Notes: generated by a model from the sequence alone, not told the origin. Positions 1,532 through 30,076 are shown, numbered from the stretch's first letter. The stretch: DNA of 33,038 nucleotides from Candidatus Omnitrophota bacterium (GCA_023247385.1 JAHFGO010000003.1:1-33038); one strand, 5' to 3'. Numbers and translations: made by a program.

Positions 1532-1536
1532 TATTT

Positions 1537-2721: not shown

Positions 2722-2740
2722 ATTTCGTTAAATATACACT

Positions 2741-3991: not shown

Positions 3992-4000
3992 CTAAACGCC

Positions 4001-5431
4001 TTAATTGAAGATGAAGCGATTTAAATATTTAACCCCTTTTGAACAGATTTGCGATATACCTTTCAAGCCGTGTCTTCTGACCATACTCATGATCACCGAT
4101 GGCTTCGAATAAAATGTCCTATAAATACTCCTATAACCATCTTCGAGCTCTTCGCGCGATAATGTGCTCGGGATGAATGAGATATGATGCCCTGTCCTGT
4201 TTGAGTAATCCCCTAATAACGTGCCTTTATTTTCTATGCCGTGGTATATGGGCGAACCCGGAAACGGAACGAAATACCACAAAAACATGTAATCCAGATC
4301 GATCTTTTTTATCAGATCGATCGTATCCGATATAGATTCTTTGTCTTCACCGGGGCCGCCGATTATAAAGGAACCTGCAAGCGAAATACCGCCATCCATA
4401 ATCATCCTACATTTTTCAGGTAATTCATCAAGGTGCAATTTTTTATTATAGACGTTTAACATCTTTGATGAGCCAGATTCGATCCCGAATATGACGCTGC
4501 GGCATCCAGCATCATACAGCGCTTTACCGGTATATGAATCTACGCTGTCTGCGCGCATTGAGCAGCTCCATGTGATATTATATTTCAGGAATTTATCTCT
4601 CAGCAGTTCGCATATCTCATTAAATCTATTTTTAGTAATGCAGAAATTTTCATCGGCCAAGTCGAGACAATTTACTTTGAATTTTTTAAACAGCATATCG
4701 ATCATCTCTGAAAGATAATCGATGCTGTAAAATCTGACATTTCTGCCGAGCACAGTACGGTCACAGAAGGTGCATGCGAATGGGCATCCGCGCGCAGTGA
4801 TGATGGGAAGATTGATATCTCTTTTTTCTTTATATAGGGCGGGCGAATAAGGGGAAAGGGTAATATGATCGAAAATCGGAAAGGACAATTTATTAACATC
4901 CGTTATCGTATTGCTGCTGCCTAGTGTTATCAAATTTTTCTCTTTTCTAAATATCACTCCATTGATGCCCGCCGGGCCTCGCCCTTCTTTTAAAGCCCTC
5001 ATCACCTCGACTATGGCCTCCTCGGCTTCCCCCAATATGCCGATATCGATCTCAGGACATTCGTTCATCGTCTCTTGAGGAACGGCGGTAAAATGAACTC
5101 CTCCGACAATTATTTTTATCTTAGGCTCAAGTTTTTTTATCAACGATATGAGTTTCAAAGACTTATTTACAAGAAACGTAAAGTGGACGGCTACCCCTAC
5201 GAATTCCGGATTCATCTCAACGATATTTTTAGCCAGCATCTCGATGCTTTCCGTCCCGTATGACAAATCCAACAGCCTAGTATTGATATTCGCCTTTGCG
5301 AGGCTGGCTGCTAAATAGACTAGATTTATAGGTGTTCCATATTGTCCCACAAAATCTAACAGGCCAAAATTTTCCTCTAACCCAAATGGAGGGCTGGTTA
5401 AAACAATGCCCAGCTTCTGTCCGTTCAGCAA
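4001..5431 (-). CDS. B12-binding-domain radical SAM protein (class B type)
   Basis: 476 aa. The CxxxCxxC motif occurs in ITARGCPFACTFCDR. An N-terminal Rossmann-like cobalamin-binding-type region is present (IIVGGVHFTAVPQE...GEAEEAIVEV). The start is a TTG at 5431-5429 that overlaps the upstream stop by 7 nt, preceded by AAGGAAG. Confidence 0.8.
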   Translation of the reverse strand: MLNGQKLGIVLTSPPFGLEENFGLLDFVGQYGTPINLVYLAASLAKANINTRLLDLSYGTESIEMLAKNIVEMNPEFVGVAVHFTFLVNKSLKLISLIKKLEPKIKIIVGGVHFTAVPQETMNECPEIDIGILGEAEEAIVEVMRALKEGRGPAGINGVIFRKEKNLITLGSSNTITDVNKLSFPIFDHITLSPYSPALYKEKRDINLPIITARGCPFACTFCDRTVLGRNVRFYSIDYLSEMIDMLFKKFKVNCLDLADENFCITKNRFNEICELLRDKFLKYNITWSCSMRADSVDSYTGKALYDAGCRSVIFGIESGSSKMLNVYNKKLHLDELPEKCRMIMDGGISLAGSFIIGGPGEDKESISDTIDLIKKIDLDYMFLWYFVPFPGSPIYHGIENKGTLLGDYSNRTGHHISFIPSTLSREELEDGYRSIYRTFYSKPSVIMSMVRRHGLKGISQICSKGVKYLNRFIFN

Positions 5432-6375
5432 TTTATTTCTTCCTTCACCGTATAAACAGATTTTTTTGTAGTCTCATAATATATGCGTATATTGAGCTCT
5501 GCCAGTAAACCTATGAATATGATCTGTGTCCCCAAAATGAACAGAAAGACCGCCAGCAATAACAGGGGATTTCTGTGCACCCAGAATCCCCACATGAACT
5601 TCTGAAACAGCGTAAACATTCCGCACAGCGTTCCCAGCACCATTAAAAGGATTCCCCATCCCCCAAAAAAATATAAAGGACTCGTTGAATAGTTGCCCAA
5701 AAGGAATTTCACAGTTATCAGGTCAAAGATAACCTTAAGCATCCTGTTCATTCCATATTTGGAATTCCCCCATTTGCGCTCTCTGTGATGTACTTCGACT
5801 TCCGCTATCTTCCCACCCTGCCAGTAAACATATAATGGCATAAATCGGTGCATCTCTCCATATAGATTTATATTTTTTAGAAAATCTTTTCTATAGGCCT
5901 TTAAGGTGCAGCCATAATCATGCAATTTTAGACCAGTCGATGCGGATATTATATAATTGGCTATTAAGGAGGGAAGCCGCCTCTTTATGAAAGGCTCTTT
6001 TCTTTTTCTTCTCCATCCGCTTACTAAATCATAACCATCCCTTATTTTTTGCATAAGAGAAATGATATCCTGCGGGTCATTCTGCAGGTCTGCGTCCATC
6101 GTCATGATATAGCTGCCTTTGGAATAATCGATCCCTGCGGCTATCGCTGACGTCTGTCCATAATTTCTTCTAAATATAATCCCTTTCACGTTACTATCGC
6201 TCTTCGCTGTTTGCCTTATCATCGCCTCGCTCTTATCGGTGCTGCCATCATCAACGAAGATGATCTCATAAGGGTCCTTCGATTTCGACAAAACGCCTTT
6301 TAGCTCATTATAAAGATGGGGGAGGTTTCCCTCTTCATTATATACAGGTATTACAATTGAAATAAGAGCCGCCAT
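5425..6375 (-). CDS. Polyprenyl-phosphate glycosyltransferase, GT2, ArnC/GtrB/DPM1-like, with two C-terminal TM helices
   Basis: Blocks that match remembered E. coli ArnC: VIPVYNEE, DDGSTD, RRNYGQTSAIAAG, MDADLQNDP, DYGCTLKAYR, HHRERKWGNSKY. Two hydrophobic helices follow (LYFFGGWGILLMVLG... and LLLLAVFLFILGTQIIFIGLL). I place the start at the ATG at 6375 (MAALISIVIP) because GAGAGGTGG lies 5 nt upstream. The ORF-track start at 6390 is a GTG five codons further up. Confidence 0.85.
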   Translation of the reverse strand: MAALISIVIPVYNEEGNLPHLYNELKGVLSKSKDPYEIIFVDDGSTDKSEAMIRQTAKSDSNVKGIIFRRNYGQTSAIAAGIDYSKGSYIMTMDADLQNDPQDIISLMQKIRDGYDLVSGWRRKRKEPFIKRRLPSLIANYIISASTGLKLHDYGCTLKAYRKDFLKNINLYGEMHRFMPLYVYWQGGKIAEVEVHHRERKWGNSKYGMNRMLKVIFDLITVKFLLGNYSTSPLYFFGGWGILLMVLGTLCGMFTLFQKFMWGFWVHRNPLLLLAVFLFILGTQIIFIGLLAELNIRIYYETTKKSVYTVKEEINC

Positions 6376-6398
6376 ATCCACCTCTCTCACAAGTAGCG

Positions 6399-7583
6399 CT
6401 AATATAAATCGATATCTGAATCACCATATGTCAAATACCAATTCTTTCTATCTTGAAGGAATGAACCATTTTTATTTATCATCCCCTCATTCAATAAATG
6501 TATAAGGAACCTATCATTAGATTTTATATTGATAAAACCTGACGTTCTGACAGTCCGTTGTATTACGGGACTTAAAGAATCGCATCTCACAAGATCTACC
6601 CTGCCATTAAAATCTTGAAGAGCCGTGTTGAGAAGAGAGACGCCGATATTCTTTTCCTTCGGATCAAAGAAGATATCAGAGATTATCCCTACTTTTAATC
6701 CGCCGAATCTGATGTTATCGCTCTTAACGTTAGCTTCTCGTATTACAGCATAGCCTCTTAAGCCGCCTTTTATCTCTGCGGTTAATATCTTATAGCGCCG
6801 ATATGGTTGATCTATAAATCTCCATTTCAGCATGCCCTTGTCTCTAGTCGCTATGCATGTGGATTGTTTTGAAGCCTCTAGCCAAAAACTATCAAACCCT
6901 TCATCGAAATTCACAGCTTCTGAAACCTCAACATTTTCATTCTTATGGAATCTATTCCAAAGATGCGATAATTTAAATATTGCATTTATTGTGACATGTA
7001 AAAATGGTCGCATAAGTTCCATATCAATGCTCTTTTCTAATATATTTTTAAAATTTAGCGGATATACGCTTCTATTGATAGCCCCCATGTCAAGGAAACC
7101 TGCCTTTTTGAATAGATCGTATGAGCGTTCATTTGTACCAGCCGCCATTACTATATCAATAAGGCCATTTAATTTTTTTAATGCGTGTTGAATTAAAGAG
7201 TGACCGATACCCATATTTCTGAAAAGGGGTAATATTATAAAATCCTGAAACCAACCGCCTTTATAAGTCTCTTGTCCAACTTTCAAATCTATCGGCATCA
7301 CGCAGATTTGACCAACCATTTTATCCCTGAACCGACAGATCCAAATAATAGGTTTCCACCTTACCATGGTTGGATTATCCAGATATTTCCAGTCCCAAAA
7401 CTTCTTCACCATTTCGCGCTTTTCGAATTTATCACGGTTGAACTGGTCTTTATATGCAACCATTAAAAAATCTATATATTCCTCTTTATCCGCAAGAGAT
7501 AGATTTTCAAATTCCACTTTTGGCTCATTATCGGATAATAAGAGTCCCTCAGTCCTTACAGAGTTCTTCTTATCTTCTGCCAT
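6399..7583 (-). CDS. GNAT-family N-acyltransferase with an additional C-terminal domain
   Basis: 394 aa with an ATG start. The GNAT motif A is LFRNMGIGHSLIQHALKKL, preceded by a beta-strand block GQICVMPIDLKV. About 200 further residues are of unrecognised fold. The gene overlaps the upstream CE4 gene by 28 nt. Confidence 0.6.
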   Translation of the reverse strand: MAEDKKNSVRTEGLLLSDNEPKVEFENLSLADKEEYIDFLMVAYKDQFNRDKFEKREMVKKFWDWKYLDNPTMVRWKPIIWICRFRDKMVGQICVMPIDLKVGQETYKGGWFQDFIILPLFRNMGIGHSLIQHALKKLNGLIDIVMAAGTNERSYDLFKKAGFLDMGAINRSVYPLNFKNILEKSIDMELMRPFLHVTINAIFKLSHLWNRFHKNENVEVSEAVNFDEGFDSFWLEASKQSTCIATRDKGMLKWRFIDQPYRRYKILTAEIKGGLRGYAVIREANVKSDNIRFGGLKVGIISDIFFDPKEKNIGVSLLNTALQDFNGRVDLVRCDSLSPVIQRTVRTSGFINIKSNDRFLIHLLNEGMINKNGSFLQDRKNWYLTYGDSDIDLY

Positions 7584-8368
7584 AGTTCATACCAATCATA
7601 GGCGCCTTCTAACTCTTTTGCAAACTCATATTTATCATCGAACCAGGATATGCGCGTTCGCCTCATCAGGTAGGGATCGCTCTCGATGGTATTAGAGCCG
7701 GCTATTGTGGTGAATGCTGCTTTATACCCTGCGGATTTCACCGCATCCACAGCACTTTTATCAAAAGACCCATAGCAACCAAATGGATATGCAAAAAGAT
7801 CTATTGTGGTCCTGAGATGATCTTCTAAGATGTTTTTTGATAGGCCCATCTCATTCTTCAGCTCATTTGTTTCTAGGCGATGCAGCTTCTTATGACTTAA
7901 AGAATGCGAACCGAAAGAGAATATGCCCATCGCTGTCAACTCCATGAGGTCATCCCAGTTAAGCCATTGCTCGCTCCTTCCGATAAAATTTACGGTTAAA
8001 AATATCGTCGCCCTAAACCCATATCGCGCTAAGATGGGCGCGGCATTAGTCAGATTGTCTTTAAAACCGTCATCGAATGTTATGCATATTGTTTTTGGAG
8101 GCATCTCTTTGTTTTCCTTTATGTTATCAATCATCTCGCCGCATGGTATGACAGAGTAACTATTTTCATTTAAGTATCTCATCTGTTCTTTAAAGAGCTC
8201 CTTGGGCGTTGTCATCTGATAGTTATCGTCTCCGATAAGGTCATCTGTTATCGAATGATAGGTCAACACACGGAATTCTCCCCTTGCGACATCTAAAATG
8301 GTTCGGAATGGATTAAAATGAAAGGCTATATTTGCTATTGTCTTTTTCAATGTCAGTTTTTTATCCAT
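7556..8368 (-). CDS. Polysaccharide deacetylase, NodB-homology / carbohydrate esterase 4 family
   Basis: 270 aa. NodB motif 1 is ICITFDDGFKDN, the metal-binding motif is FGSHSLSHKKL, and a later block is AYPFGCY. Its ATG directly abuts the upstream stop (TAGATG). Confidence 0.8.
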   Translation of the reverse strand: MDKKLTLKKTIANIAFHFNPFRTILDVARGEFRVLTYHSITDDLIGDDNYQMTTPKELFKEQMRYLNENSYSVIPCGEMIDNIKENKEMPPKTICITFDDGFKDNLTNAAPILARYGFRATIFLTVNFIGRSEQWLNWDDLMELTAMGIFSFGSHSLSHKKLHRLETNELKNEMGLSKNILEDHLRTTIDLFAYPFGCYGSFDKSAVDAVKSAGYKAAFTTIAGSNTIESDPYLMRRTRISWFDDKYEFAKELEGAYDWYELWQKIRRTL

Positions 8369-10225
8369 CTATATATCACCATTAAGATAATAGTAAATTA
8401 TTGCAAGATATTCGTGAACTATCCCCTTGATTTGCCGAAGGTCTATCTGTTTATGAAAGACGCCTCTTTTCACATGTGAATAAAATGAACTCTGCGGCAA
8501 AGGGGTGTATGTTACTTGTACATCTTTGGCGATCTTATCAAAGACGAGCGATACGCGCCGCATATGATAAGGAGAGCTGACCAATAAAATTTTTTTCCAT
8601 TTTTCTCTGTCTAAAATTTTTTTTGTAAATGCCACATTTTCATAGGTATTTCGCGCGGCATCCTCCAAGATGACAGCCCTTTCAGGCACACCCAATGATA
8701 TCGCCAGACCCTTCATCACCAGCGTCTCTTTAAAGACGTACATATAACCTGAGGAAAAGATCAAACGATCTGCATAACCTTTTTTGTACAATTCAACAGC
8801 ATACCCCACTCGCTCTTCATAGCCCTGGCCGGCCTTACCGGATTCTCCAACACCTCCTCCAAAGACAACGATACAATCTGCCTTCCGGGGTGCCTCTGAA
8901 ATATTTAACGGCTCGGCAATCGACCAGACTATGGGTGTACAAAATATCAGCAGATACATGCCGCCAAGAAGACTGGCTATCTTCAGTGCTCTTTTACGCG
9001 ATACTATATAAAATTTGAGAAAACGCTCCTTCCAGTCTGCGGAACTTTTGGTTTTCTTCGCAATAGCGTCTCCCATTAAATCGCCCATCTTCTCGATCCG
9101 CGCTGCCCAGCCATGCTTCTTTGCCGACTCTATCCGCTGCTCCCTCAATTCGCCAGCCTTGCCGTCAAGCACGCCTGATATCCTTTCTATAAACTCGTCA
9201 TGAGTTTTCCCAACCAGTACAATGTTATCATTCTCGTTATTAAAGTTGACAATTTCTGGCAAATTCGTAGATACTACAGGTTTGCCCATTGCATGATATT
9301 CATTTAATTTCGTGGGGAAGACGGTTGTAGTATAGCCGCTCACTTCATAAGGTATGATACAGACATCGAATTGATCTACATAATTTGGAAGAGTGGAAAA
9401 ATCTCTTTTTCCTAATAGATATATATTTGTGAGATTGCTTATCGCAGAGATATCCGCCTGTACAGGCCCAACTAGAACTATAGACCAGTCAGGATGAGAC
9501 TGGGCCATGAACTTTATTAAACCGAAATCCATATGCCTATGTATGCCGCCAACATACCCGATCACGGGCCGTTTTATATCTTTTATATCATCTGGAATAT
9601 CGGTGCCATCCTCCAGTACACTAAAGGTCTCTATATTTACTCCGAATGGGAATATATGCACATTCTTATTCAGGCCTTCGCACTTCTCTTTCAGGGCATT
9701 GCCCTGTGCAAATATCACGTCACTTTTCCTTATTAGTTCATCTTCTGTCTGGCGTATCTTTTTTGGATCATTTACCAATTCATAAAAATCTGCTATGCAG
9801 TAATAGACTAATAATTTCCTATCGATATCATTTATGATGTCGATAGCCGTGCCCGTAGGCAAGAACGTCCAGATGATAGGTTCATGAAATTCCATTATCT
9901 TCATCCATCGCCTTATAGGATTGATGAGCATATATCTATTTATATATCTAGCGATTTTAGAATATGGAAAAGGCAAAATTATCGGCGAGTACACATACAG
10001 ATTATTCATCTCCTCTCTAAAACCTCTTACGCTTTTAAACCAGTTGGCTATCCTCTTTTTGAGCCTCTGAATGTCAGTTAGGCTAGGTGGCCTGACGCCG
10101 GTGTTTTCAATAAATAAGACCCTATTGCCGTTTTTGGCAAAAGTTGACATTATCTCCTGATGGCCCTGCCATATAAAATCCCAATCGATCGAGGATATAC
10201 AAATTATGTCTTCGCCCTTTAGCAT
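8369..10225 (-). CDS. Fusion protein: N-terminal GT-B glycosyltransferase (GT4, TuaH-like), one TM helix, C-terminal DUF218 (YdcF/ElyC/SanA-like) domain
   Basis: 618 aa with an ATG at 10225. The N-terminus reads IICISSIDWDFIWQGHQEIMSTFAKNGNRVLFIEN and the acceptor/donor half reads VIGYVGG...FPTKLNEYHAMGKPVVSTNLPEI. The hydrophobic helix is ALKIASLLGGMYLLIFCTPIVWSI. The DUF218 blocks are ADCIVVFGGGVGESG, RLIFSSGY, NTYENV and ILLVSSPYHMRRV. Confidence 0.65.
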   Translation of the reverse strand: MLKGEDIICISSIDWDFIWQGHQEIMSTFAKNGNRVLFIENTGVRPPSLTDIQRLKKRIANWFKSVRGFREEMNNLYVYSPIILPFPYSKIARYINRYMLINPIRRWMKIMEFHEPIIWTFLPTGTAIDIINDIDRKLLVYYCIADFYELVNDPKKIRQTEDELIRKSDVIFAQGNALKEKCEGLNKNVHIFPFGVNIETFSVLEDGTDIPDDIKDIKRPVIGYVGGIHRHMDFGLIKFMAQSHPDWSIVLVGPVQADISAISNLTNIYLLGKRDFSTLPNYVDQFDVCIIPYEVSGYTTTVFPTKLNEYHAMGKPVVSTNLPEIVNFNNENDNIVLVGKTHDEFIERISGVLDGKAGELREQRIESAKKHGWAARIEKMGDLMGDAIAKKTKSSADWKERFLKFYIVSRKRALKIASLLGGMYLLIFCTPIVWSIAEPLNISEAPRKADCIVVFGGGVGESGKAGQGYEERVGYAVELYKKGYADRLIFSSGYMYVFKETLVMKGLAISLGVPERAVILEDAARNTYENVAFTKKILDREKWKKILLVSSPYHMRRVSLVFDKIAKDVQVTYTPLPQSSFYSHVKRGVFHKQIDLRQIKGIVHEYLAIIYYYLNGDI

Positions 10226-10252
10226 ATAATTTTTTCCATATATTAATACTAA

Positions 10253-10281
10253 ATTATATAAGAAAGATATTAGGAAGGCAA
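10253..10281 (-). promoter_or_regulatory. Candidate sigma70-type promoter for the downstream (lower-coordinate) half of the cluster
   Basis: On the minus strand the sequence is TTGCCT (10281-10276), a 17-nt spacer, then TATAAT (10258-10253). The -10 element lies about 28 nt upstream of the ATG at 10225. It sits inside the 124-nt AT-rich gap, one of only two real intergenic gaps in the window. Confidence 0.35.
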
Positions 10282-10349
10282 CTACAATCTTACATCATAA
10301 ATATCGCTATATTTAGCTTTGAAAGACTTAGTGGGAAGCAATATCGCTC

Positions 10350-10862
10350 TTAATCGAATTCGCTTTTTTTCCCAAAAATGATAAGCTTCATCATTATAAA
10401 CAGCCTTGCTATCAATAAAACTATATGTCGTTTAAGATAATATCTTCCGCTTTTGAATGTGATTTGTCTATTGTTAAGCAATCTTTTAAGCCGATTGTCA
10501 ATCATCTCTTTAGCATTGTAGCGTTCGAGAATCTGCTGCATAGAAAGTCCGTCTCTAGCGTCGTATATCTCCCTTAAAATCCTGATCCTCCGCGCTGTTT
10601 CGCTTAAACATATAAAACTGAAATAACAGTAAGATAGCGACGCATAGATCAAGAGATTTACCAAAAACATAGCTATGCGGTCGGTTAGCGCCATCGCCTC
10701 AATTCTAAAAAAATAAGATTGGTATATCAACAAGCCAAATGCGCCGGCACCGACGCCGACGAAAACGGATCTCAACAAGTTGGTCTTCAAAATATATCGG
10801 AAACTTGCGATCTGGAACAGCATATTTATTATAAGACAGGCTATGGGAACGAACGCGACCAC
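10350..10862 (-). CDS. Uncharacterised small membrane protein (3-4 TM) with a winged-helix-like soluble segment; paralog of 10864..11385
   Basis: 170 aa. The GTG start at 10862 is preceded by AGGAGG with a 5-nt spacing. Three N-terminal hydrophobic helices are followed by ARRIRILREIYDARDGLSMQQILERYNAKEMIDNRLKRLLNNRQITFKSGRYYLKRH and then a hydrophobic tail IVLLIARLFIMMKLIIFG. I do not recognise the family. Confidence 0.6.
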   Translation of the reverse strand: MVAFVPIACLIINMLFQIASFRYILKTNLLRSVFVGVGAGAFGLLIYQSYFFRIEAMALTDRIAMFLVNLLIYASLSYCYFSFICLSETARRIRILREIYDARDGLSMQQILERYNAKEMIDNRLKRLLNNRQITFKSGRYYLKRHIVLLIARLFIMMKLIIFGKKSEFD

Positions 10863-10863
10863 C

Positions 10864-11385
10864 TCATCCTCCTTTCGGCATGTTTAGTATTCTACGATAA
10901 AATATAAAAACGCGTTCTGTATAATTGCCTTTTTTGGTCAATCTATAAATATCCCCACTTTTATAGACCAATCCGTCTTTCATCAAATCCATGATTCTCG
11001 TCTTTATTAACATATCGTCCGTCATCATCTTATACAACTCTTCCTTGGCCAAGCCGTGCGATCCCGCATCAGCGATGTGTTGTATAATAAGTAGGGACGG
11101 ACTGTCTGCCTCTATAGCTGGATAATTAAATATATAGAAAAGACCTAGGGAAAGATAAAGCAGCGATATGTGAAGGCATTCTAAAAGATTTTTAGGAAAA
11201 AATAAATTGATGACGAGGGTAGATCTTGATGCAATCCATAAAAGGATGAGCGACAAAATCAAATTCAATAAAAATAGACGGAACAAGCTATTCGTCGGTT
11301 GTTTCGGCGGATATATCCTCCATCTGGCGATATGGATAGTAAAGAATATGAAAAATATAAGTATGCCCCATATGAGGATTAGCAT
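10864..11385 (-). CDS. Uncharacterised small membrane protein (3 TM) with a winged-helix-like soluble segment; paralog of 10350..10862
   Basis: 173 aa. The ATG overlaps the upstream SDR stop by 7 nt. Three hydrophobic helices are followed by SPSLLIIQHIADAGSHGLAKEELYKMMTDDMLIKTRIMDLMKDGLVYKSGDIYRLTKKG. This aligns by eye with the equivalent segment of the next gene (GL...e.l......mi..R...L......fKSG.YyL.k). Confidence 0.6.
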   Translation of the reverse strand: MLILIWGILIFFIFFTIHIARWRIYPPKQPTNSLFRLFLLNLILSLILLWIASRSTLVINLFFPKNLLECLHISLLYLSLGLFYIFNYPAIEADSPSLLIIQHIADAGSHGLAKEELYKMMTDDMLIKTRIMDLMKDGLVYKSGDIYRLTKKGNYTERVFIFYRRILNMPKGG

Positions 11386-12302: not shown

Positions 12303-12315
12303 AATTTCAGCTGTC

Positions 12316-13422: not shown

Positions 13423-13434
13423 CGGGTTTATCTC

Positions 13435-14277
13435 TTAAGACAATATATCGCCTTTCTTTAATCTTGTGTCGGCATTCACTAAAATAACACCATCATTGGT
13501 GCTTATAACATATCTTCCGTCGCGAGTGACCCCCAAGACTTCCCCGGCCCTCTTTCCCGGATATGCGCGTCTAAATTGTATCCTCTCTCGATTTTTGAAA
13601 CCGAAGGCATTAGGCATCGGATCGACGAGAGCATTTATAAATCGATTCAACTGGAAGCTGGTCTTCATCCAGTCTATCCTGCTATCAGCAGGCGTTCTCT
13701 TGGCCAGATAGGTTGAAAAGCCACGTATCTGTTTCCTTCGGTATGCGCACTTATTCTCTATCTGCCGAACTGCTGTGAGTAACAATTTTTTGCCGCATGC
13801 GATCAGCCTCTTTGAGATGGTGCCATAATCATCGTCTCGCGCAAATTCGATGCTATCCTGCAGAACAATATCTCCATCATCTATATTTTCATTCATAAAA
13901 TGGACTGTGATGCCCATCTCTCTCTCGCCATTTATGATTGCCCAATTCACAGGGTGACGGCCCCTATATTTTGGTAATATTGAAGTATGTAGATTGACAG
14001 CCCCAATTTTAGGAATGCCCAATATAGACAGTTTTATTATTTCGGGGTAGGCAATAAAGATCATTAGATCAGGCTCGATCTTCTTTATTCTGCCTGCCAG
14101 AGAATGTATATCATCCGTCACAATCGTCTCTATCCCTAACCGGCCCAATGCCCTTTTAGAGATCTCGAGATAATTATGTCTATGGAGCACCAGCAATTCC
14201 GGCCTGTATCCGAACTTGCAGAGGTTCTTTACATTCTCTATAAAGGGCTCTGACGAACCTCCCATGACTATCTTCAA
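13435..14277 (-). CDS. Formyltransferase, ArnA N-terminal-domain / Fmt-like (sugar N-formyltransferase candidate)
   Basis: [48 protein letters not shown] matches remembered ArnA [45 protein letters not shown]...[10 protein letters not shown] matches ArnA RRTPDDSFLEW...AVADPWPGAF. I place the start at the TTG at 14277 (MKIVMGGS), which has GGAGGA 7 nt upstream and lies 4 nt after the upstream stop. The ORF-track start at 14304 is another TTG that overlaps the upstream gene. Confidence 0.8.
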   Translation of the reverse strand: [280 protein letters not shown]

Positions 14278-14281
14278 TGCC

Positions 14282-14971
14282 TTATCCTCCACGCAGGATA
14301 TCAAAGACGGATTTTAGAATGCCGATTATATTTTTTATTCTAAATGCCTTGGAATGGCCCTTTTTTCTATCCAATAAATATATACCTACCTCTATATAGC
14401 CATAGCCTCTTTTTAACAATTTTACGAGCGCCTCAGCCTGATAGGCAAAACTATCCGTCTTTATTGCGATGGAACTTATGATCGAAGTTTTGTGAAGGAC
14501 CATTCCATTATAATATTTCAATCTAAGGCCCGCCGCCAGATTCACCAACTGCACAAAGCCCTTTGATATGATCTGTCTCCATAAAGGCCTGGAGCGCTCG
14601 TTCAAATGAAACGGTATCACCATATCCGCTTTATTTCTTAAATCGAAAGTGTCTTCGAATGCCTTTTGCTCAACATCATTATCACCTGTGACCAACATCA
14701 GGTATTCCATTCTGGCCATCTTGATGCCAGATTTATAGACGTAACCAAGGTTCATAGGTCGAGGATGGTGCATGGCTCTTACTTTGGGGTTAGTGCGCGC
14801 TATTTCATCGACGATTTTACCGGTGTCATCCGTTGAGCCATCATTGAATATTATCATTTCATAATCCGCAAATCTTCCATCTATCGCCCGTTTTACTTTA
14901 TCGTATGTCTGAAGCAGGTTATCTTCCTCATTCAAAGCCGTTATGATGATCGATATCGTATCTCGGTTCAT
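14282..14971 (-). CDS. GT2 glycosyltransferase, Dpm1/ArnC-like catalytic domain without TM helices (paralog of 19541..20311)
   Basis: 229 aa with an ATG start. Blocks: ISIIITALNEEDNL, IIFNDGSTDDTGKIV, LVTGDNDVE, MVIPFHLNERSRPLWRQIISKGF. No hydrophobic C-terminal helices are present. It aligns by eye with the 256-aa GT2 at 19541..20311. Confidence 0.75.
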   Translation of the reverse strand: MNRDTISIIITALNEEDNLLQTYDKVKRAIDGRFADYEMIIFNDGSTDDTGKIVDEIARTNPKVRAMHHPRPMNLGYVYKSGIKMARMEYLMLVTGDNDVEQKAFEDTFDLRNKADMVIPFHLNERSRPLWRQIISKGFVQLVNLAAGLRLKYYNGMVLHKTSIISSIAIKTDSFAYQAEALVKLLKRGYGYIEVGIYLLDRKKGHSKAFRIKNIIGILKSVFDILRGG

Positions 14972-14977
14972 CTTCGT

Positions 14978-16474
14978 CTATCGTTTAAATACCATCATCG
15001 CCTCGTAGAAAAATATCTTCGCAAAAGAGCATAATATCCTAAACGCGAATTTGATTAGATAAGACCATTCCTCTATATTGAAGTACCACCTCTGGGGCAA
15101 TGCCAGCCATCCTGCGGGTCCGGTCTTCTCCTTCAGGATCTTATAGATGCTCTGCGGACGGAATGAATAATAAAGATTATATTTTAGTATGTCATGCCTG
15201 AGGTCGTCTTCCGATGCTGTGCATGGGACATACGCTAATGGATTCTCTTTGAACGGCGATTCCACAAGCGTTCCACAGGCATTCAAATTCTCCCAGTCTT
15301 TCCCAGGATTGAACCTATTTTCCTCGACTGCTATCTCGTATAATTTTGTGCCGGGATACGGCGTTGCGTTATTAAATCTCACGTAATCCAAAGACAATTC
15401 TTTCGCGAGCCTGTAAGTAGCCCTGCGCTCTTCTTTGGTCTCGGTCGGAAGCCCTAATATAAATGTGCTTGATACCTGGAGACCGTGCTTTTTAGTTAAT
15501 TTAATTCCATTTATGATCTCTTCAACCGTTTCTTTCTTATCGATCAGCTTCATCAACCTTTCTGAAGCCGTCTCTATACCGAAATGGATCGTCCGGAAAC
15601 CAGCGACCTTAAGCGTCGTTAATATATTATCATCTACGGTGTCCCCTCTTGCCTGACAATCAAATATTGCCTTTTTATGAAAACCTTTTGCAATTATCCT
15701 CTCGCATAGATCCATGACCCTTTCTTTCTTCATCAGAAAAGAATCATCCGCGAATGTTATATATGTCCGTTTATATTTGTTTACCAATTCATCCAAACTC
15801 TCCATGACAACTTCCGAAGAGAAGAATCTATACCTTCTGCCTGATATGCTTCTCTGGCTGCAGAACATGCAATCGTAAGGACACCCTCTGGAGCTTGCGA
15901 CAAATCCCAACTCATATCGATCCTGATGGTGATCGAATAGATGATAGGGAAATCTTGGGATCTTGGTTAAATCCGGCAGGGTTGCATCTGAATTATGAAT
16001 GACGCAACCGTCTTTACGAAAGGAAATGCCCTTTATATCATCATATGTCCTATTATTTTTTATTCTTTCATATAATAGATTCAGTGTCTCCTCGCCCTCG
16101 CCGCGAACTACTATATCCACATCCTCATCCTTTAAAACGTCGTTGGGCATAACGGTAGGATGTATGTTTCCGAATATCACTATGCTATGGGGGTATCGTT
16201 TCTTTATAAGGCCCGCCAATTCAAGACCTCTTGCGATTCCAGCGGTCAAACAAGAAAAGCCAAAAATATATGGACGTTCAAATAATCTCGTGCATTCATC
16301 AAGTAGTGGTTCAGATACGCAGACTATCTCCTCATCTAATATCTTGACTCTTCTACCATGTTTAACTAGATAGCCAGCAAGATAACCTATTCCTATCGGA
16401 ACGCTTATGGGCACATATTTTGAGAATCCGCCTAACTTCTGTTTACGATTATAAGCCGGGCTAATGAATATCAT
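14978..16474 (-). CDS. B12-binding-domain radical SAM protein (class B type)
   Basis: 498 aa with an ATG start. The CxxxCxxC motif occurs in ASSRGCPYDCMFCSQ. The N-terminal cobalamin-binding-type region reads IVIFGNIHPTVMPND...VRGEGEETLNLL. Its architecture matches that of 4001..5431. Confidence 0.8.
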   Translation of the reverse strand: MIFISPAYNRKQKLGGFSKYVPISVPIGIGYLAGYLVKHGRRVKILDEEIVCVSEPLLDECTRLFERPYIFGFSCLTAGIARGLELAGLIKKRYPHSIVIFGNIHPTVMPNDVLKDEDVDIVVRGEGEETLNLLYERIKNNRTYDDIKGISFRKDGCVIHNSDATLPDLTKIPRFPYHLFDHHQDRYELGFVASSRGCPYDCMFCSQRSISGRRYRFFSSEVVMESLDELVNKYKRTYITFADDSFLMKKERVMDLCERIIAKGFHKKAIFDCQARGDTVDDNILTTLKVAGFRTIHFGIETASERLMKLIDKKETVEEIINGIKLTKKHGLQVSSTFILGLPTETKEERRATYRLAKELSLDYVRFNNATPYPGTKLYEIAVEENRFNPGKDWENLNACGTLVESPFKENPLAYVPCTASEDDLRHDILKYNLYYSFRPQSIYKILKEKTGPAGWLALPQRWYFNIEEWSYLIKFAFRILCSFAKIFFYEAMMVFKR

Positions 16475-16486
16475 ATTCTACCAACA

Positions 16487-17416
16487 TCAGCGTTGAGTGG
16501 TTTTAGTTTTAAGGCCGCGAAAATAATAACGGACAATTCCAAAAGTCATAGCCAGCCTTCCCGCAAATATCAACGGAAAATAAAAAACGACCTTTTTATC
16601 GTAAGGGTACCATGCACTTACTATCTGCGCACTTAATAAAAACGCCAATGGAAAAGAGTATATCAAACTGGATAGATGATCAAATGGCAATAGGAACCAA
16701 TAACGGTGTCTATTCAGCCTCCTTGCCGGAATCCTGTCTATGCCTGCCAAATAGAAACATTTGATAAAATCCACAAACCGTTCACGGTCATAATGTTTTA
16801 CAACAGCGTCCGTCTTAAGCGCCATCCTATATCCAGCCTTGAGCGCCCTTTCACAAAAATCCGTATCCTCGCCTGTTCTGAGGGTAATGTTAAAAGTCCC
16901 TATCTTTTCAAAGACATTCCTCTTCACGGACATATTGTTGGTGACAAGATGCGTCTTTACTCTATTGACAGAATACGGGATGTTTAGAAACCAATGGCTG
17001 TAATTGTCGGCCTTGGCCACGAGCCCATTACCGATACCCTGTATTCCTCCTCCTACTATATGGGCCAATCTATCTCTATGAGCTAAAACATGTTTTGAGA
17101 TCAACTCATTATCATCGATGAAGCAATCGCTATCTATGAAAAGAATTATATCTCCAGATGACTCTCTGATGCCGATATTCCTTGAATACGCCGACCCATG
17201 ATTATCCTCATTTCTGATAATCTTAAGGCCTTCCGTCTTCTCCAAAATCTTATGAGTTCCGTCATTCGAATCGTCATCGACCACTATGATCTCATATGAA
17301 GGATAGTCCTGAGCCATAATGCCTCTCAAGACACCCCTTATAGTCTTCTTGGAATTATAGCACGGGATGATGACGCTGACTTTAGGGAGACCGTTATCAG
17401 TTCTATTTTTTTCCAA
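16487..17416 (-). CDS. GT2 glycosyltransferase with a hydrophobic C-terminal region
   Basis: 309 aa with a TTG start 1 nt after the upstream stop. Blocks: VSVIIPCYNS, IIVVDDDSNDGT, FIDSDC, GEDTDFCERA. The C-terminal hydrophobic stretches are YWFLLPFDHLSSLIYSFPLAFLLSAQIV and VVFYFPLIFAGRLAMTFGIV. Confidence 0.8.
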   Translation of the reverse strand: MEKNRTDNGLPKVSVIIPCYNSKKTIRGVLRGIMAQDYPSYEIIVVDDDSNDGTHKILEKTEGLKIIRNEDNHGSAYSRNIGIRESSGDIILFIDSDCFIDDNELISKHVLAHRDRLAHIVGGGIQGIGNGLVAKADNYSHWFLNIPYSVNRVKTHLVTNNMSVKRNVFEKIGTFNITLRTGEDTDFCERALKAGYRMALKTDAVVKHYDRERFVDFIKCFYLAGIDRIPARRLNRHRYWFLLPFDHLSSLIYSFPLAFLLSAQIVSAWYPYDKKVVFYFPLIFAGRLAMTFGIVRYYFRGLKTKTTQR

Positions 17417-17417
17417 T

Positions 17418-18440
17418 TTATCTTAATAATTTTAAATAGGAATTCGGATTCAATAAAATATTCTCGATCATGTTGCAGTCGTGCGTGCAAAAACAATCGC
17501 CCTTCCTAACAGACGAGATAGCTCGTTTCATTTCCGCGCTATTTAATAATCCTTCCAAAGTTTTTTCCCGGATGTTTCCGATTGAGGACAGAAGCTCGCA
17601 GATAGATACGCTACCTTCGGGCCATATCACTAGATGAGAGATGCCGGCCCGACATAGAACAGGCTGCCGCCTGACTTCCAGCGCCTTCATCGTCAGTTCC
17701 CTCTTGTATGCCTGGTAATTCCTTTGGACTCTTAAAAGAATTCCCCTCCGTCCATAATCATAGGAGCGCTGAATGCGATAGATATCGCTCTCCAGCATCT
17801 TCATTCGTTCTACGGATGGCAACCGCATTGAAGGGTCGCGGCTTACGCCTCTTAGCATAAGGATAGAGTGGAAAGCAGGTCTCAATCCTCTCACGAAATG
17901 CATCAAATCTATTATCTCCTCGACATTTTTCTCGCAGAGCACCGTATTGAACTTTATCCTCATCCCATTAATCTCTTTCAACCTATTAAAAGTCTGAATG
18001 GTTCTCTCAAAGGACATGGGACATCTTATCTCATCATGCGTCCTCTGCATCCCGTCCAGCGAAAGAGTAACGATAAGTTTTCCGTCCGTATTCAGATGGA
18101 TTTTTTTAAGCATCTTCACGATCCGGTTGGTATCCCATCCATTAGTCGGTATTGACAGCTCTTTAAAATCGAACAGGGAGACTATCTCCTCAAGGTCATC
18201 CCGCAATGTTGGCTCGCCTCCGCCTATATCCAACCATATGAGATCGGAAAACTTTTTGGAAATTGTCCCGATCTCGTTGAGCGTCAACTCCTGCACTGCT
18301 TTATCTATATCGACAAAGCAGTGTCTGCATCTCATATTGCATCTGTTGGTAATATGAAGGATGAGGTGCTTAATGCTGGGTCTGAAATAAGAGAGCATTG
18401 TCTCTTTCAGCACTTTTGTGATAACGGATATGTTTTTCAT
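17418..18440 (-). CDS. Radical SAM protein with a SPASM/twitch-like C-terminal cysteine cluster
   Basis: The CxxxCxxC motif occurs in HITNRCNMRCRHCF, followed by the GGGEPTLRDD SAM-binding block. The C-terminal cysteines are CRAGISHLVIWPEGSVSIC...GDCFCTHDC. I place the start at the ATG at 18440 (MKNISV), which forms an ATGA overlap with the upstream stop. The ORF-track start at 18512 would overlap the upstream gene by 76 nt. Confidence 0.8.
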   Translation of the reverse strand: MKNISVITKVLKETMLSYFRPSIKHLILHITNRCNMRCRHCFVDIDKAVQELTLNEIGTISKKFSDLIWLDIGGGEPTLRDDLEEIVSLFDFKELSIPTNGWDTNRIVKMLKKIHLNTDGKLIVTLSLDGMQRTHDEIRCPMSFERTIQTFNRLKEINGMRIKFNTVLCEKNVEEIIDLMHFVRGLRPAFHSILMLRGVSRDPSMRLPSVERMKMLESDIYRIQRSYDYGRRGILLRVQRNYQAYKRELTMKALEVRRQPVLCRAGISHLVIWPEGSVSICELLSSIGNIREKTLEGLLNSAEMKRAISSVRKGDCFCTHDCNMIENILLNPNSYLKLLR

Positions 18441-19540
18441 ACAAAATTTATATGCATAGGTCTGGCACCTTTTGACCGTTTGAGAACGGCCTTCCCCTGT
18501 TTCAAATCCCAAAGAAATTCATTCACTTTATGCTGAAGACACAAGGTGCCGCACATGGTTCTCGGGTCGAACGAACTGGACGCGATATGATGCATGACCT
18601 CCCAGTATAATTTGCTTTTCCATATCTCTTTAAAAGGCTTATCTGCTATATTGCCGATATGGAATCTTTTATATTTTTTGTTAAATAGCATGCCGCATGG
18701 CGCAACCAACCCTGAGCCTGACATCTGCAAGATAAATGGTGGGCCATAACATTGCGAATATCTCCGCCTGCCGCCGCTTAAAATCTTAGACCATTTGACT
18801 TTTACCAAATATCCTTCGTGTGAATATCGCTCAGCCTCTCTCAAAATATCTGATAATTTAAAATACTGAGAATAATCGACTTTTAAACTCCCGGTTTCGT
18901 CATCGCTGCAATGCTTGATAACGGCGTAGTCGACGCCAAGCTCCTTACCGAGTTTGGCAAATGGAACGACCTGATCAGCGTATTGAGGCATCAATACCAT
19001 CTGTATCCCTAAGCTGACAGGAAGACTCTTTTCCTTTTTTATCCGCGCACATTCTTTTATAGTGCGGCATACTTTATGAAAGCAGTCCTCCTTGCATCCC
19101 ATGATTTCAGCATAGCGTGTCGGTTCTGCTGCTGATATATTGAATCTAAGATAGGTAAGGTTGGGCAACACCTCTTCCAGTCTATCACCAGTCAACAAAT
19201 AACCGTTCGTCCCTAATGCCATATCAAGACCGTTTGCCTTGCCTCTTAAAATTGCATCGTATAAATAAGGAGAGCATGTGCTTTCTCCGTCGCTGACAAA
19301 ACTGACGGCCCTGACCCCTATTTCAGCAGCATCATCGAGGAACCTGAATATTACGTCCCTCGTCATCTTCTTCTCGTCGTTGGCCTGCAGCTGCCCGTAA
19401 CAATATATGCATCTATAAGTGCACCGCCTCGTCAGAGCGCAATCGATTGTTATAGGCGCTATCCTCTCACCCCTTAGCCACGCTTCTATTCTGTCCTTAT
19501 GCCAGACCACTTTTTGACCGTCGAGGATCAGCTCCGCCAT
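18437..19540 (-). CDS. Radical SAM protein with a C-terminal auxiliary Cys region (paralog of 22341..23408)
   Basis: 367 aa. The ATG abuts the upstream stop (TAAATG). The CxxxCxxC motif occurs in ALTRRCTYRCIYCYG, followed by the SDGEST block. The C-terminal cysteines are QCYGPPFILQMSGSGLVAPCG and MCGTLCLQHKVNEFLWDL...HINFV. It aligns along its full length by eye with 22341..23408. Confidence 0.8.
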   Translation of the reverse strand: MAELILDGQKVVWHKDRIEAWLRGERIAPITIDCALTRRCTYRCIYCYGQLQANDEKKMTRDVIFRFLDDAAEIGVRAVSFVSDGESTCSPYLYDAILRGKANGLDMALGTNGYLLTGDRLEEVLPNLTYLRFNISAAEPTRYAEIMGCKEDCFHKVCRTIKECARIKKEKSLPVSLGIQMVLMPQYADQVVPFAKLGKELGVDYAVIKHCSDDETGSLKVDYSQYFKLSDILREAERYSHEGYLVKVKWSKILSGGRRRYSQCYGPPFILQMSGSGLVAPCGMLFNKKYKRFHIGNIADKPFKEIWKSKLYWEVMHHIASSSFDPRTMCGTLCLQHKVNEFLWDLKQGKAVLKRSKGARPMHINFV

Positions 19541-20311
19541 TTATAAATCTCCTCGCCGCCTAATAGCCGTAGAAGAATCGTCTGAGTAACGAATCTCGGC
19601 GTCTTTCTTATTCCTGAAATAAAAATCTTTCACTAGATGCAGATATCCATTTATCACATTTAACAAAGACGGGAATGTGACTGCTTTCGAAGGGCCGTGC
19701 CCTCTCGATCCAACCCGATACGGCACCTCGGCAAAAAGATATCCTTTCTTTACGGCCCTTATCAATATATCGGTTTGAAAGAAAAATCCGTTTGACCTGT
19801 AGTCCATCTCCTTTAATATGGATTTTCGATAAAGATTAGTTCCGTTGGTGTAATTGAAATTTACCAGAAAGCTGGTGTTGACAATGAATCGATAGACGAG
19901 AGAAAGCACGTTTCTGAAAAGAGGCCTTGCCGCTTTATTAAATATGAATGGTATGACTATATCTACCTGTTCAAGTAGTTTGTAATAGCGGAATATCTCA
20001 TTGGGATCGTTCTCGTTATCGCCGGGAAGCATCACTATGATATCTCCGAAGGCGCTATCAAGGCCATCCCAAAACGATGTGCCGACGCCTTTAGGCATCT
20101 CGTGGATGACCATCCGTATTCGACGATCGACTTTTGCCGCATCCCTCACCACCGTCTCTGTGTTATCGCTGCTTCCGTCATTTATGACTATGACCTCGCC
20201 ATTGATATCAAACCTACGAAAAGCATCCAGTGCATTTTTGATGGCGTCCGCAATATTCTTTTCTTCATTGAGTGCCGGCATAATAACCGACACCTCGACC
20301 TTATTTTGCAT
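19541..20311 (-). CDS. GT2 glycosyltransferase, Dpm1/ArnC-like catalytic domain without TM helices (paralog of 14282..14971)
   Basis: 256 aa with an ATG start. Blocks: VSVIMPALNEEKNI, VIVINDGSSDNTETVV, MLPGDNENDP, IVIPFIFNKAARPLFRNVLSLVY. There is no C-terminal membrane helix. Confidence 0.75.
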   Translation of the reverse strand: MQNKVEVSVIMPALNEEKNIADAIKNALDAFRRFDINGEVIVINDGSSDNTETVVRDAAKVDRRIRMVIHEMPKGVGTSFWDGLDSAFGDIIVMLPGDNENDPNEIFRYYKLLEQVDIVIPFIFNKAARPLFRNVLSLVYRFIVNTSFLVNFNYTNGTNLYRKSILKEMDYRSNGFFFQTDILIRAVKKGYLFAEVPYRVGSRGHGPSKAVTFPSLLNVINGYLHLVKDFYFRNKKDAEIRYSDDSSTAIRRRGDL

Positions 20312-22326: not shown

Positions 22327-22340
22327 GATCGCATGCCCTC

Positions 22341-23970: not shown

Positions 23971-23972
23971 AT

Positions 23973-29969: not shown

Positions 29970-30019
29970 TCCTTTTATGTATCAGTTGATGACATATTAT
30001 TATAGCAAGATTAGATGAT

Positions 30020-30048: not shown

Positions 30049-30076
30049 CTATAATTTCTACTGTAGCATACGATGC

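Follow-up and report, generated by a model that had tools for sequence, protein, structure and literature searches.

Radical SAM genes beside Dpm1/ArnC-type glycosyltransferase genes in a surface-glycan locus of Candidatus Omnitrophota: candidate lipid-carrier modules with embedded sugar tailoring

Introduction

Why should genes for radical S-adenosylmethionine (SAM) enzymes stand directly beside genes for glycosyltransferases of the kind that charges a lipid carrier with a sugar? This question is raised by a stretch of 33,038 nucleotides from a Candidatus Omnitrophota bacterium (GCA_023247385.1, JAHFGO010000003.1:1-33038), here called the window, in which all 29 open reading frames (ORFs) of at least 170 residues lie on the minus strand, almost all of them closely packed. 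Three of these genes encode family 2 glycosyltransferases (GT2) of the Dpm1/ArnC type, and each adjoins a radical SAM (rSAM) gene: GT2a (5425–6375) stands beside B12rSAM_1 (4001–5431; pair 1), GT2b (14282–14971) beside B12rSAM_2 (14978–16474; pair 2) and GT2c (19541–20311) beside rSAM_S2 (18437–19540; pair 3). An earlier note on this sequence had seen in these pairs, together with three candidate GT-C transferases, a possible set of three parallel routes of lipid-linked sugar decoration and had suggested that the radical SAM enzymes may act on sugars destined for, or already attached to, the polyprenyl-phosphate carrier.

The explanation that we prefer, and to which as a whole we give a probability of roughly 55%, is that the window carries two conserved three-component modules. 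In these, a GT2 of the Dpm1/ArnC type would load a sugar onto polyprenyl phosphate, the lipid-linked sugar would be flipped and a GT-C enzyme would transfer it outside the membrane. The radical SAM genes would encode tailoring enzymes for the sugars carried by the same routes, which we propose as the reason for their position beside the GT2 genes. Radical SAM enzymes, in one module along with a thiamine diphosphate (ThDP)-dependent enzyme, would thus be embedded in a lipid-carrier/GT-C framework that is itself well supported.

Results

All three paired GT2 proteins match PF00535 (E = 5e-35 for GT2a, 1.5e-18 for GT2b and 9.8e-21 for GT2c), and residues D45, D98 and D117 of the GT-A domain with its DxD-type motif are invariant in the family alignment. 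GT2a is a full-length ArnC/GtrB-type protein that aligns with ArnC end to end (NF007986, E = 8e-65; ArnC in the PDB, E = 3e-54 over residues 5–312; GtrB, 2e-36), and it is the only one of the three with the C-terminal transmembrane (TM) helices of the ArnC/GtrB/archaeal DPMS subclass, seen as hydrophobic segments at about residues 244–297. GT2b (229 residues) and GT2c (256 residues), a pair of paralogs with 29% identity (E = 4e-37), are without TM helices, and their single-sequence matches are ambiguous. The best PDB matches of their family profile (26 members) are the three polyprenyl-phosphate glycosyltransferases of solved structure, DPMS (5.6e-25), ArnC (4.9e-23) and GtrB (5.7e-20), with alignments that span profile positions 4–228 of 254 (GtrB to 169); for almost every other GT2 structure the alignment is confined to the N-terminal 100–130 residues, TarP and SpsA reaching about 170. 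Since the profile aligns with DPMS, ArnC and GtrB across the whole catalytic domain, GT2b and GT2c can be assigned to the same class. Judged by sequence, all three GT2s belong to the Dpm1/ArnC/GtrB class of polyprenyl-phosphate-sugar synthases, as the earlier note had claimed, GT2b and GT2c being candidates of the TM-less GacI/PpgS/DPM1 subclass. Their being ordinary chain-extending transferases was rejected on the full-domain profile match. The cut-off of the ArnC equivalog NF007986 (529 bits) is not reached by GT2a (218.9), GT2c (56.8) or GT2b (30.1).

The three junctions can be read directly from the sequence and are as previously described. The stop codon TGA of GT2a (5425–5427) and the TTG start codon of B12rSAM_1 (5429–5431) lie within TTGCTGA, a 7-nt overlap at 5425–5431, and the TTG start is supported by a Shine-Dalgarno-like stretch, GAAGGAAG, and by an alignment with 15 orthologs that runs end to end and includes the N terminus. 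In pair 2, the stop codon TAG of B12rSAM_2 (14978–14980) is followed by the 6-nt spacer ACGAAG (14972–14977) and the ATG of GT2b at 14971, and in pair 3 the stop codon TAA of GT2c (19541–19543) directly abuts the ATG of rSAM_S2 at 19540 (TAAATG, 19538–19543). Three GT2s and three radical SAM enzymes had been counted; the number holds for the GT2s of the Dpm1 type, but the window contains five GT2 genes in all (30077–30994, 19541–20311, 16487–17416, 14282–14971 and 5425–6375) and five radical SAM genes, three of the SPASM type (22341–23408, 18437–19540 and 17418–18440) and two of the B12 type (14978–16474 and 4001–5431). When the gene order was shuffled, all three Dpm1-type GT2s touched a radical SAM gene in 2.7% of the permutations, and four of the five GT2s did so in about 3%; comparative genome data are the stronger evidence for a coupling. 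The coupling is also not special to Dpm1-type enzymes: GT2d (16487–17416), an ordinary EpsD/MftF-like GT2 of the chain-extending type, has radical SAM genes on either side, and a fusion protein of 816 residues (P0125) joins a relative of B12rSAM_1 to an ordinary rhamnosyltransferase-like GT2.

Pair 3 belongs to a widespread cassette. Cluster representatives with an identity of at least 74% to rSAM_S2 number more than 120, and a scan with one genome per species returned 80 loci (65–78% identity), onto whose ORFs we mapped the window proteins. More than 10 bacterial phyla are represented besides archaea, the loci being from Omnitrophota, Elusimicrobiota, Planctomycetota, Patescibacteria, Nitrospirota, Desulfobacterota, Chloroflexota, Verrucomicrobiota, Fibrobacterota, Latescibacterota and DPANN archaea, and an identity of 65–80% across bacterial phyla and DPANN archaea suggests frequent horizontal transfer of rSAM_S2 under strong constraint. 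A recurrent cassette is found in the order [short-chain dehydrogenase/reductase (SDR) – HldE-like – GmhA-like] – rSAM_S1 – ThDP enzyme – GT2c – rSAM_S2 – TM173 – TM170 – large polytopic protein. A GT2c/b-like gene directly adjoins rSAM_S2 in 54 of the 80 loci (46 times upstream, 8 times downstream), and in several more it is fused, frameshifted or less than 1 kb away. The ThDP enzyme is present in 69 loci in one of two unrelated types, E1 alpha/beta (36) or a split transketolase-like pair (33). Three kinds of gene fusion were observed directly, namely of GT2c with rSAM_S2 (P0299), of E1 beta with GT2c (L010) and of a Transket_pyr-like domain with rSAM_S2 (L081). The polytopic protein after TM170 differs between genomes, being of the TM577 family, DUF2079, YfhO-like or a TPR-repeat polytopic protein in which the membrane part matches no family. 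Among these, YfhO is a known GT-C enzyme, and DUF2079 is counted here as presumably of the GT-C type from its Pfam clan. Such interchangeable polytopic proteins are the pattern expected if GT2c makes a lipid-linked donor for lineage-specific GT-C delivery.

TM173 (10864–11385) and TM170 (10350–10862) are small membrane proteins of an unannotated family, each with three predicted TM helices and a winged-helix-like C-terminal domain. They are paralogs (hhalign, 95.5%), and TM170, whose family comprises 1270 representatives at 50% clustering, is always paired with TM173. Neither passes a Pfam model, permissive scans gave only weak, scattered matches, and the TM170 profile found no relative among PDB sequences. 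The pair occurs in 18 of the 45 cassette loci with GT2c/b and in none of the nine without (p = 0.022). In the GacI/GacJ/GacL system of Streptococcus pyogenes and with PpgS/Rv3632 of Mycobacterium tuberculosis, a TM-less GT2 makes the polyprenyl-phosphate monosaccharide, and a small three-TM protein (GacJ or Rv3632), encoded beside the GT2 and upstream of a GT-C enzyme, binds and stimulates it (10.1101/180810). Because the pair occurs only where GT2c/b is present, and by analogy with this arrangement, TM173 and TM170 are probably membrane partners of the GT2, though outside DUF2304 (PF10066), which 2 of 17 TM173 members match at E = 0.014 or weaker and no TM170 member matches. The TM173 C-terminal domain weakly matches HemN_C, a radical SAM-associated domain, in 6 of the 17 members.

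Three GT-C candidates had been named, and they differ in how well they stand. The PMT_2/ArnT-like protein encoded at 2741–3991 passes its family model (PF13231, 41 bits against a cut-off of 26.1), but TM577a (28236–29969) and TM577b (26503–28236) pass none and are GT-C-like candidates by a profile match and a motif. These two are tandem paralogs of 577 residues each with 70% identity, their genes share base 28236, where one starts and the other ends, and both show seven to eight hydrophobic segments followed by a soluble C-terminal tail of about 165 residues. They have no sequence match in Pfam, NCBIfam or the PDB, and a profile search of PDB sequences returned nothing useful. Compared by hhalign, the TM577 profile matches that of the PMT_2 family with 94.7% probability (E = 6e-8) over 199 N-terminal columns from the first TM helix, and straight after this helix, in the first extracytoplasmic loop, six of the nine members, TM577a and TM577b included, carry W-D-D and a seventh Q-D-D. 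Members of the family come after the TM173/TM170 pair in L005, L021, L031, L053, L055, L099 and L101, and L005, L021, L031 and L099 have two of them, like the window.

For pair 1, a metagenome scan with B12rSAM_1, a cobalamin-type enzyme (PF02310 and PF04055; CPFACTFC at residue 216), gave 14 loci, seven of them orthologous, and the statistics rest on about 11 distinct loci, window included. Among the orthologs examined (45–66% identity), a GT2 of the polyprenyl-phosphate type directly adjoins the radical SAM gene in the window, L001, L002, L003, L086 and L090, being ArnC-like in most loci and AglJ/PpgS-like in L002, and in L087 and L103 it is no more than 2 kb away; the two genes are found in either order. 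A PMT_2 gene stands near them in the window, L001, L003, L087, L103 and L104, as an ortholog in L001 and L087 and as another PMT_2 protein in L003, L103 and L104, and counting GT87 proteins too adds L105 and L106. In L003, PMT_2, B12rSAM_1, the GT2 and an AsnB-like amidotransferase are set among housekeeping genes, which suggests that the trio is a module complete in itself. Among relatives at a greater distance (36% identity), GT-C genes (GT87, PMT), AsnB-like genes and, once, a short GT2 gene are found nearby. The best matches of B12rSAM_1 itself are AprD4 in the PDB (9e-20) and, in NCBIfam, HpnJ (168 bits against a cut-off of 578), both of them enzymes with sugar substrates (PMC9204698, PMC13459092). 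Neither B12-type enzyme of the window reaches the cut-off of a named equivalog (HpnJ, BchE, PhpK or others), the score for BchE being 186 bits against 481. As a separate observation, the proteins P0043, P0047, P0052, P0076, P0104 and P0125 include relatives of B12rSAM_1 fused to class I SAM methyltransferase domains.

The adjacency of each GT2 to its radical SAM gene thus recurs in homologous loci for pairs 1 and 3, but that of pair 2 is not conserved. Orthologs of B12rSAM_2, also of the cobalamin type (PF02310 and PF04055; CPYDCMFC at residue 198), share 54–73% identity and adjoin rSAM_S2, TM173/TM170 or TM577-like genes (L005, L031, L033, L053, L065, L099 and L101); a GT2c-like gene is next to an ortholog only in L100 and L102, and the constant partners of B12rSAM_2 are TM173/TM170. 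The closest genome, L005, has the order GT2c – rSAM_S2 – B12rSAM_2 – TM173 – TM170. Compared with it, two parts of the window look like insertions: the unit of rSAM_S3 and GT2d, which is absent from L005, and the block in which GT2b is followed by an ArnA-N-like formyltransferase (13435–14304; NF005998, E = 3e-45, below the family cut-off), a DegT/ArnB-like sugar aminotransferase (12316–13422; PF01041, E = 1e-96) and an SDR resembling nucleoside diphosphate (NDP)-sugar dehydratases in Pfam and NCBIfam scans (11379–12350). GT2b has an aminotransferase and an SDR as partners in L083 as well, where the order is DegT – SDR – GT2b. As part of our overall explanation and at its joint probability, these four genes would form an Arn-like formamido-sugar route.

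One ortholog of B12rSAM_2 stands in an unusual setting. The KSB1 locus L101 (7001–14615) encodes a methyltransferase, the ortholog, a DprE1-like FAD oxidase (NF053785, E = 1.6e-75, far below the equivalog cut-off), a class III aminotransferase, TM173, TM170 and a polytopic protein of about 640 residues, and no GT2 was seen in the 7 kb on either side. Its DprE1-like neighbour is the best contextual hint that B12-type radical SAM enzymes may act at the lipid-linked stage.

For rSAM_S2 (PF04055 and PF13186) the evidence points to an earlier stage. Its best PDB sequence match is DesII (E = 2e-5), and with its AlphaFold2 model (pLDDT 81, pTM 0.84) the top Foldseek matches are again DesII (E = 1e-14, TM-score 0.56–0.66), BlsE and peptide-modifying SPASM enzymes being matched as well. 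It remains far below the DesII equivalog TIGR04426 (36.6 bits against 450), and no radical SAM enzyme of the window reaches an NCBIfam equivalog threshold. Although PF13186 matches, the seven-cysteine two-cluster SPASM motif is not found; the only invariant C-terminal cysteines are C264, C282, C330 and C334, and four such residues indicate one twitch-like auxiliary cluster. Several genomes have two DegT aminotransferases and an SDR beside rSAM_S2 in place of rSAM_S1. In most of the 18 of 80 loci in which no GT2c/b-like gene lies in the covered flank, rSAM_S2 keeps its ThDP-enzyme neighbour. DesII and BlsE act on nucleotide-bound sugars. Since rSAM_S2 is DesII-like in sequence and fold and keeps the ThDP neighbour where GT2c/b is missing, a nucleotide-sugar substrate is favoured: it may act on a nucleotide-activated heptose and make the carbonyl for a ThDP-dependent two-carbon addition. 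A role of the SPASM enzymes as maturases of ribosomally synthesized and post-translationally modified peptides was rejected, as nothing like a precursor was seen in the context, sugar genes surround them in 80 genomes and DesII is their top match.

The remaining genes of the cassette are consistent with a heptose precursor. Upstream of rSAM_S1 (22341–23408), a twitch/SPASM paralog of rSAM_S2 with 27% identity that is present in 48 of the 80 cassette loci, lie genes for a GmhA-like sedoheptulose-7-phosphate isomerase (23401–23970; TIGR00441, E = 7e-29), an HldE-like heptose-1-phosphate nucleotidyltransferase/heptose-7-phosphate kinase (23973–25514; Pfam and NCBIfam matches) and an SDR epimerase/dehydratase (25511–26506; PF01370, PF16363) that co-occurs with the other two in cassette loci. 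The domain order of the HldE-like protein is swapped with respect to Escherichia coli HldE, the adenylyl/cytidylyltransferase being N-terminal and the PfkB kinase C-terminal, and this architecture (510–513 residues) is common to many cassette loci. The ThDP-dependent enzyme of the window consists of an E1 alpha subunit (21331–22383; PF00676, E = 4e-78) and an E1 beta subunit (20301–21413), whose homolog is the one fused to a GT2c homolog. The third SPASM gene, rSAM_S3 (17418–18440), probably starts with the ATG at 18440, in an ATGA overlap with the TGA stop codon of rSAM_S2, the longest ORF extending to a TTG at 18512.

Pfam and NCBIfam scans of the 29 products show surface-glycan gene content across the whole window. 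Most proteins of the source contig (168,720 bp, from a metagenome-assembled genome) are singletons in a collection of 15 billion proteins, and the closest relatives are annotated as Omnitrophica/Omnitrophota or Nitrospirae. On the same contig, beyond coordinate 1, a WecA-like gene (PF00953), Wzy_C and a GT9 heptosyltransferase gene make the context one of the lipopolysaccharide (LPS)/O-antigen type; past the GT9 gene a sixth radical SAM gene of the B12 type is directly followed by one for a 390-residue GT2 and then by five consecutive GT2 genes. The window would then be the core of an LPS/surface-glycan locus of more than 50 kb, a claim that shares the joint probability of the overall explanation. 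A division into two operons is backed only by the intergenic gaps at 10226–10349 and 29970–30076, as a scan for promoters and terminators found no excess of promoter-like sites (52 against 49 ± 7 in shuffled sequence).

Around GT2a, genes for an SDR resembling UDP-glucuronic acid (UDP-GlcA) decarboxylase (UXS/ArnA C-terminal domain; 563–1531; NF008872, E = 1e-47; NF005998, E = 3e-46) and a GT4 glycosyltransferase (1537–2721) are both syntenic with the pair 1 region in L001. A carbohydrate esterase family 4 (CE4) polysaccharide deacetylase (7556–8368; PF01522, E = 5e-24) may provide an ArnD-like step. A GT4-type glycosyltransferase fused to a DUF218 (ElyC-like) domain is encoded at 8369–10225, and the same fusion is found upstream of the ArnC-like GT2 in L001 (857 bits). 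The 394-residue product of 6399–7583 has a GNAT acetyltransferase match confined to its first approximately 170 residues, and no family matched its C-terminal 220 residues. At the other end, 30991–33024 encodes a 677-residue protein of the TIGR04326 family (LIC13510-type surface carbohydrate biosynthesis; E = 4e-65, slightly under the cut-off) in which no Pfam domain was found.

Discussion

How might these components work together? From the gene families and their arrangement we infer the following substrates, sequence of steps and functions of TM173 and TM170. In the larger module (module A, 10350–29969), the GmhA-like, HldE-like and SDR enzymes would make an NDP-heptose, and the DesII-like rSAM_S1 and rSAM_S2, probably dehydrogenases or lyases, would create a carbonyl on the sugar. 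The ThDP enzyme, E1 alpha/beta here and split transketolase-like in other genomes, would then add a two-carbon unit, and the TM-less GT2c would load the product onto polyprenyl phosphate, probably assisted by TM173/TM170 in the manner of GacJ, Rv3632 or DPM2/3. Finally a GT-C-type protein, here TM577a or TM577b, would transfer the sugar. The block of GT2b, formyltransferase, aminotransferase and SDR would have been inserted into this module, with B12rSAM_2 as an accessory of the module itself. The second module (module B, 563–6390) would combine the ArnC-like GT2a and the PMT_2/ArnT-like GT-C protein with B12rSAM_1, which may C-methylate or rearrange the sugar before it is loaded or once it is on the lipid carrier. 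This gene content agrees with the notion of three routes, as one would be heptose-derived (GT2c), one an Arn-like formamido-sugar route (GT2b block) and one ArnC-like/PMT_2 with the UDP-GlcA-decarboxylase-like SDR. A literature search found no published description of module A or B, and no NCBIfam equivalog covers either.

Among characterized systems, GacI/GacJ/GacK/GacL and PpgS/Rv3632/Rv3779 resemble module A most directly, since GT2c/GT2b, TM173/TM170 and TM577 match their components in size, topology and gene order. They differ in that the window has two paralogous small proteins instead of one, each with an additional winged-helix-like cytoplasmic domain, that radical SAM and ThDP enzymes stand between the components and that a modified heptose, not N-acetylglucosamine or N-acetylgalactosamine, is the probable sugar. 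In the Arn pathway, which modifies lipid A with 4-amino-4-deoxy-L-arabinose, ArnD edits the sugar on the lipid carrier. The window's likenesses to it are the ArnC-like GT2a, the PMT_2/ArnT-like GT-C, an ArnA-N-like formyltransferase, an ArnB-like aminotransferase, an ArnA-C/UXS-like SDR and a CE4 deacetylase; the differences are that all matches are below equivalog cut-offs, that the genes are spread over what may be two operons and that a B12-type radical SAM gene fills the slot between the ArnC-like and ArnT-like genes. Homologs of ArnE/F were not detected in the window.

The tailoring enzymes have their own parallels. In TDP-desosamine biosynthesis (DesI/DesII), DesII is the top match of rSAM_S2, and the variant cassettes with DegT aminotransferases beside rSAM_S2 add to the likeness, whereas the linkage of rSAM_S2 to heptose genes, a ThDP enzyme and a lipid-carrier GT2, and its four-cysteine auxiliary-cluster motif, set it apart. 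ThDP-dependent two-carbon branching of NDP-sugars, which requires a keto-sugar acceptor, is known from YerE (yersiniose) and from the E1-like pairs AviB1/B2 and AlmDI/DII of branched-sugar antibiotics. As in these systems, ThDP enzymes of the E1 alpha/beta or another type stand among sugar-tailoring genes, but the enzyme of the window has two radical SAM enzymes and a Dpm1-type GT2 as partners, occurs in surface-glycan loci of uncultivated phyla and is replaced between genomes by an alternative ThDP type.

Several observations weigh against this interpretation. Neither GT2b nor GT2c has TM helices and their best single-sequence matches are weak (E = 1e-9 to 1e-15), so that a non-lipid acceptor is possible, and TM173 and TM170 pass no family threshold (DUF2304, 2 of 17; HemN_C, 6 of 17, weak). 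The GT-C assignment of TM577 comes from one profile–profile match between hydrophobic proteins, and the AlphaFold2 model of TM577a, whose alignment consisted of the two window paralogs only, is unusable (pLDDT 37). A directly adjacent GT2c/b-like gene is missing in 26 of the 80 cassette loci, of which 18 have none in the covered flank, several loci being incomplete. In three of the 11 distinct B12rSAM_1 ortholog loci no GT2 lies within 2 kb; these are the short contigs L088 and L089/L091, and L104, where the GT2 is four genes away. The likeness of rSAM_S2 to DesII is at fold level only (15–17% identity), and peptide-modifying SPASM enzymes score nearly equally.

[quoted passage not shown] We regard this as a tentative proposal, doubtful at present. 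ArnD and DprE1/E2 are enzymes that edit a lipid-bound sugar at this very position of a pathway, and MoeK5, the C-methylase of moenomycin biosynthesis, acts on a lipid-linked intermediate; radical SAM chemistry on polyprenyl-phosphate carriers has, to our knowledge, not been described. The window order of ArnC-like GT2, B12-type radical SAM and PMT_2, the first two overlapping, would suit such a step. So would the free-standing module of L003 (PMT_2, rSAM–GT2–AsnB), near which no NDP-sugar tailoring genes are found, as well as the TM173/TM170 pair and GT-C-like protein that always accompany B12rSAM_2 orthologs and the weakly HemN_C-like domain of TM173.

Further hints at lipid-stage editing come from relatives. 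The namesake of the DprE1-like oxidase in L101 oxidizes a decaprenyl-phosphate-linked sugar. In the epimerization of decaprenyl-phospho-ribose by DprE1/DprE2, and in three-component pentofuranose systems (PMC11127046), a sugar already carried by polyprenyl phosphate is altered before a GT-C enzyme uses it; the link to the present modules is the oxidase beside the B12rSAM_2 ortholog of L101, but the window has no DprE1-like gene of its own, and its chemistry would be radical-based. HpnI attaches N-acetylglucosamine to bacteriohopanetetrol and the B12-type radical SAM enzyme HpnJ acts on the same lipid-bound sugar, a similar ring contraction having been proposed for the calditol synthase Cds (PMC9204698, PMC13459092). 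HpnJ, the enzyme of hopanoid-linked glucosamine, is the best NCBIfam match of B12rSAM_1, and MoeK5 groups with HpnJ in a similarity network of B12-type radical SAM enzymes (PMC9204698). With HpnJ (bacteriohopanetetrol-glucosamine), Cds (as proposed) and MoeK5 as precedents, a radical SAM enzyme acting on a lipid-linked sugar is less unusual than the earlier note had held. HpnJ and B12rSAM_1 are not orthologs (168 bits against 578), and the lipid of the window would be a polyprenyl-phosphate carrier that feeds a GT-C enzyme, not an end-product lipid.

All of this support is contextual, however. The HpnJ and DprE1 matches lie far under their equivalog cut-offs, the radical SAM proteins have no predicted membrane segments and L101 is one locus only. 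Action on lipid-linked sugars is less likely for the DesII-like rSAM_S2, which stays with its ThDP enzyme where no GT2c/b-like gene is found in the covered flank, and is plausible from context for the B12-type enzymes.

According to a second alternative, GT2c and GT2b glycosylate another acceptor, be it a small phosphorylated metabolite, as with GpgS, a lipid or a protein, and the radical SAM and ThDP enzymes then modify the resulting glycoconjugate, whether soluble or of the membrane. The lack of TM helices in both proteins would fit, as would a match of GT2c to glucosyl-3-phosphoglycerate synthase (E = 9e-14), which covers the N-terminal half only, and the fusions with E1 beta and rSAM_S2, which suggest a soluble multi-enzyme complex. 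We nevertheless consider it unlikely, because the family profile is matched over its full length only by DPMS, ArnC and GtrB and because GT-C-type polytopic proteins come after the cassette in most genomes with sufficient flank. TM-less members of the class are moreover known (GacI, PpgS and human DPM1), and they have small membrane partners (10.1101/180810).

The adjacency could, lastly, be incidental in a GT2- and radical SAM-rich locus, each radical SAM enzyme serving some other glycan or cofactor step; this is very unlikely. In its favour, five GT2s and five radical SAM genes among 29 co-directional genes make it a not extreme outcome that four of the five GT2s touch a radical SAM gene, pair 2 is unconserved and the ordinary GT2d too is flanked by radical SAM genes. 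The conservation data largely refute it for pairs 1 and 3: the genes of pair 3 adjoin each other in 54 of the 80 genomes, which span many phyla, with either gene first and with three kinds of fusion, and pair 1 recurs in orthologous loci with otherwise different surroundings, one of them housekeeping.

What would lipid-carrier modules with embedded tailoring enzymes mean? Three-component glycosylation decorates LPS, teichoic acids, arabinogalactan and proteins and shapes antigenicity, phage receptors and antibiotic resistance. Our analysis defines two conserved versions that appear to have radical SAM chemistry built in, one of them ThDP chemistry as well, along with a new family of paired membrane proteins. 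If characterized, the modules would add new sugars, probably a heptose extended or branched by two carbons, might reveal radical chemistry on a lipid-linked sugar and would give a function to many of the proteins in glycan loci that are annotated as 'radical SAM protein'. If B12-type radical SAM enzymes do edit the sugar at the carrier stage, this would be a step of three-component GT-C glycosylation that had not been recognized before, and one found widely among uncultivated bacterial phyla and DPANN archaea.

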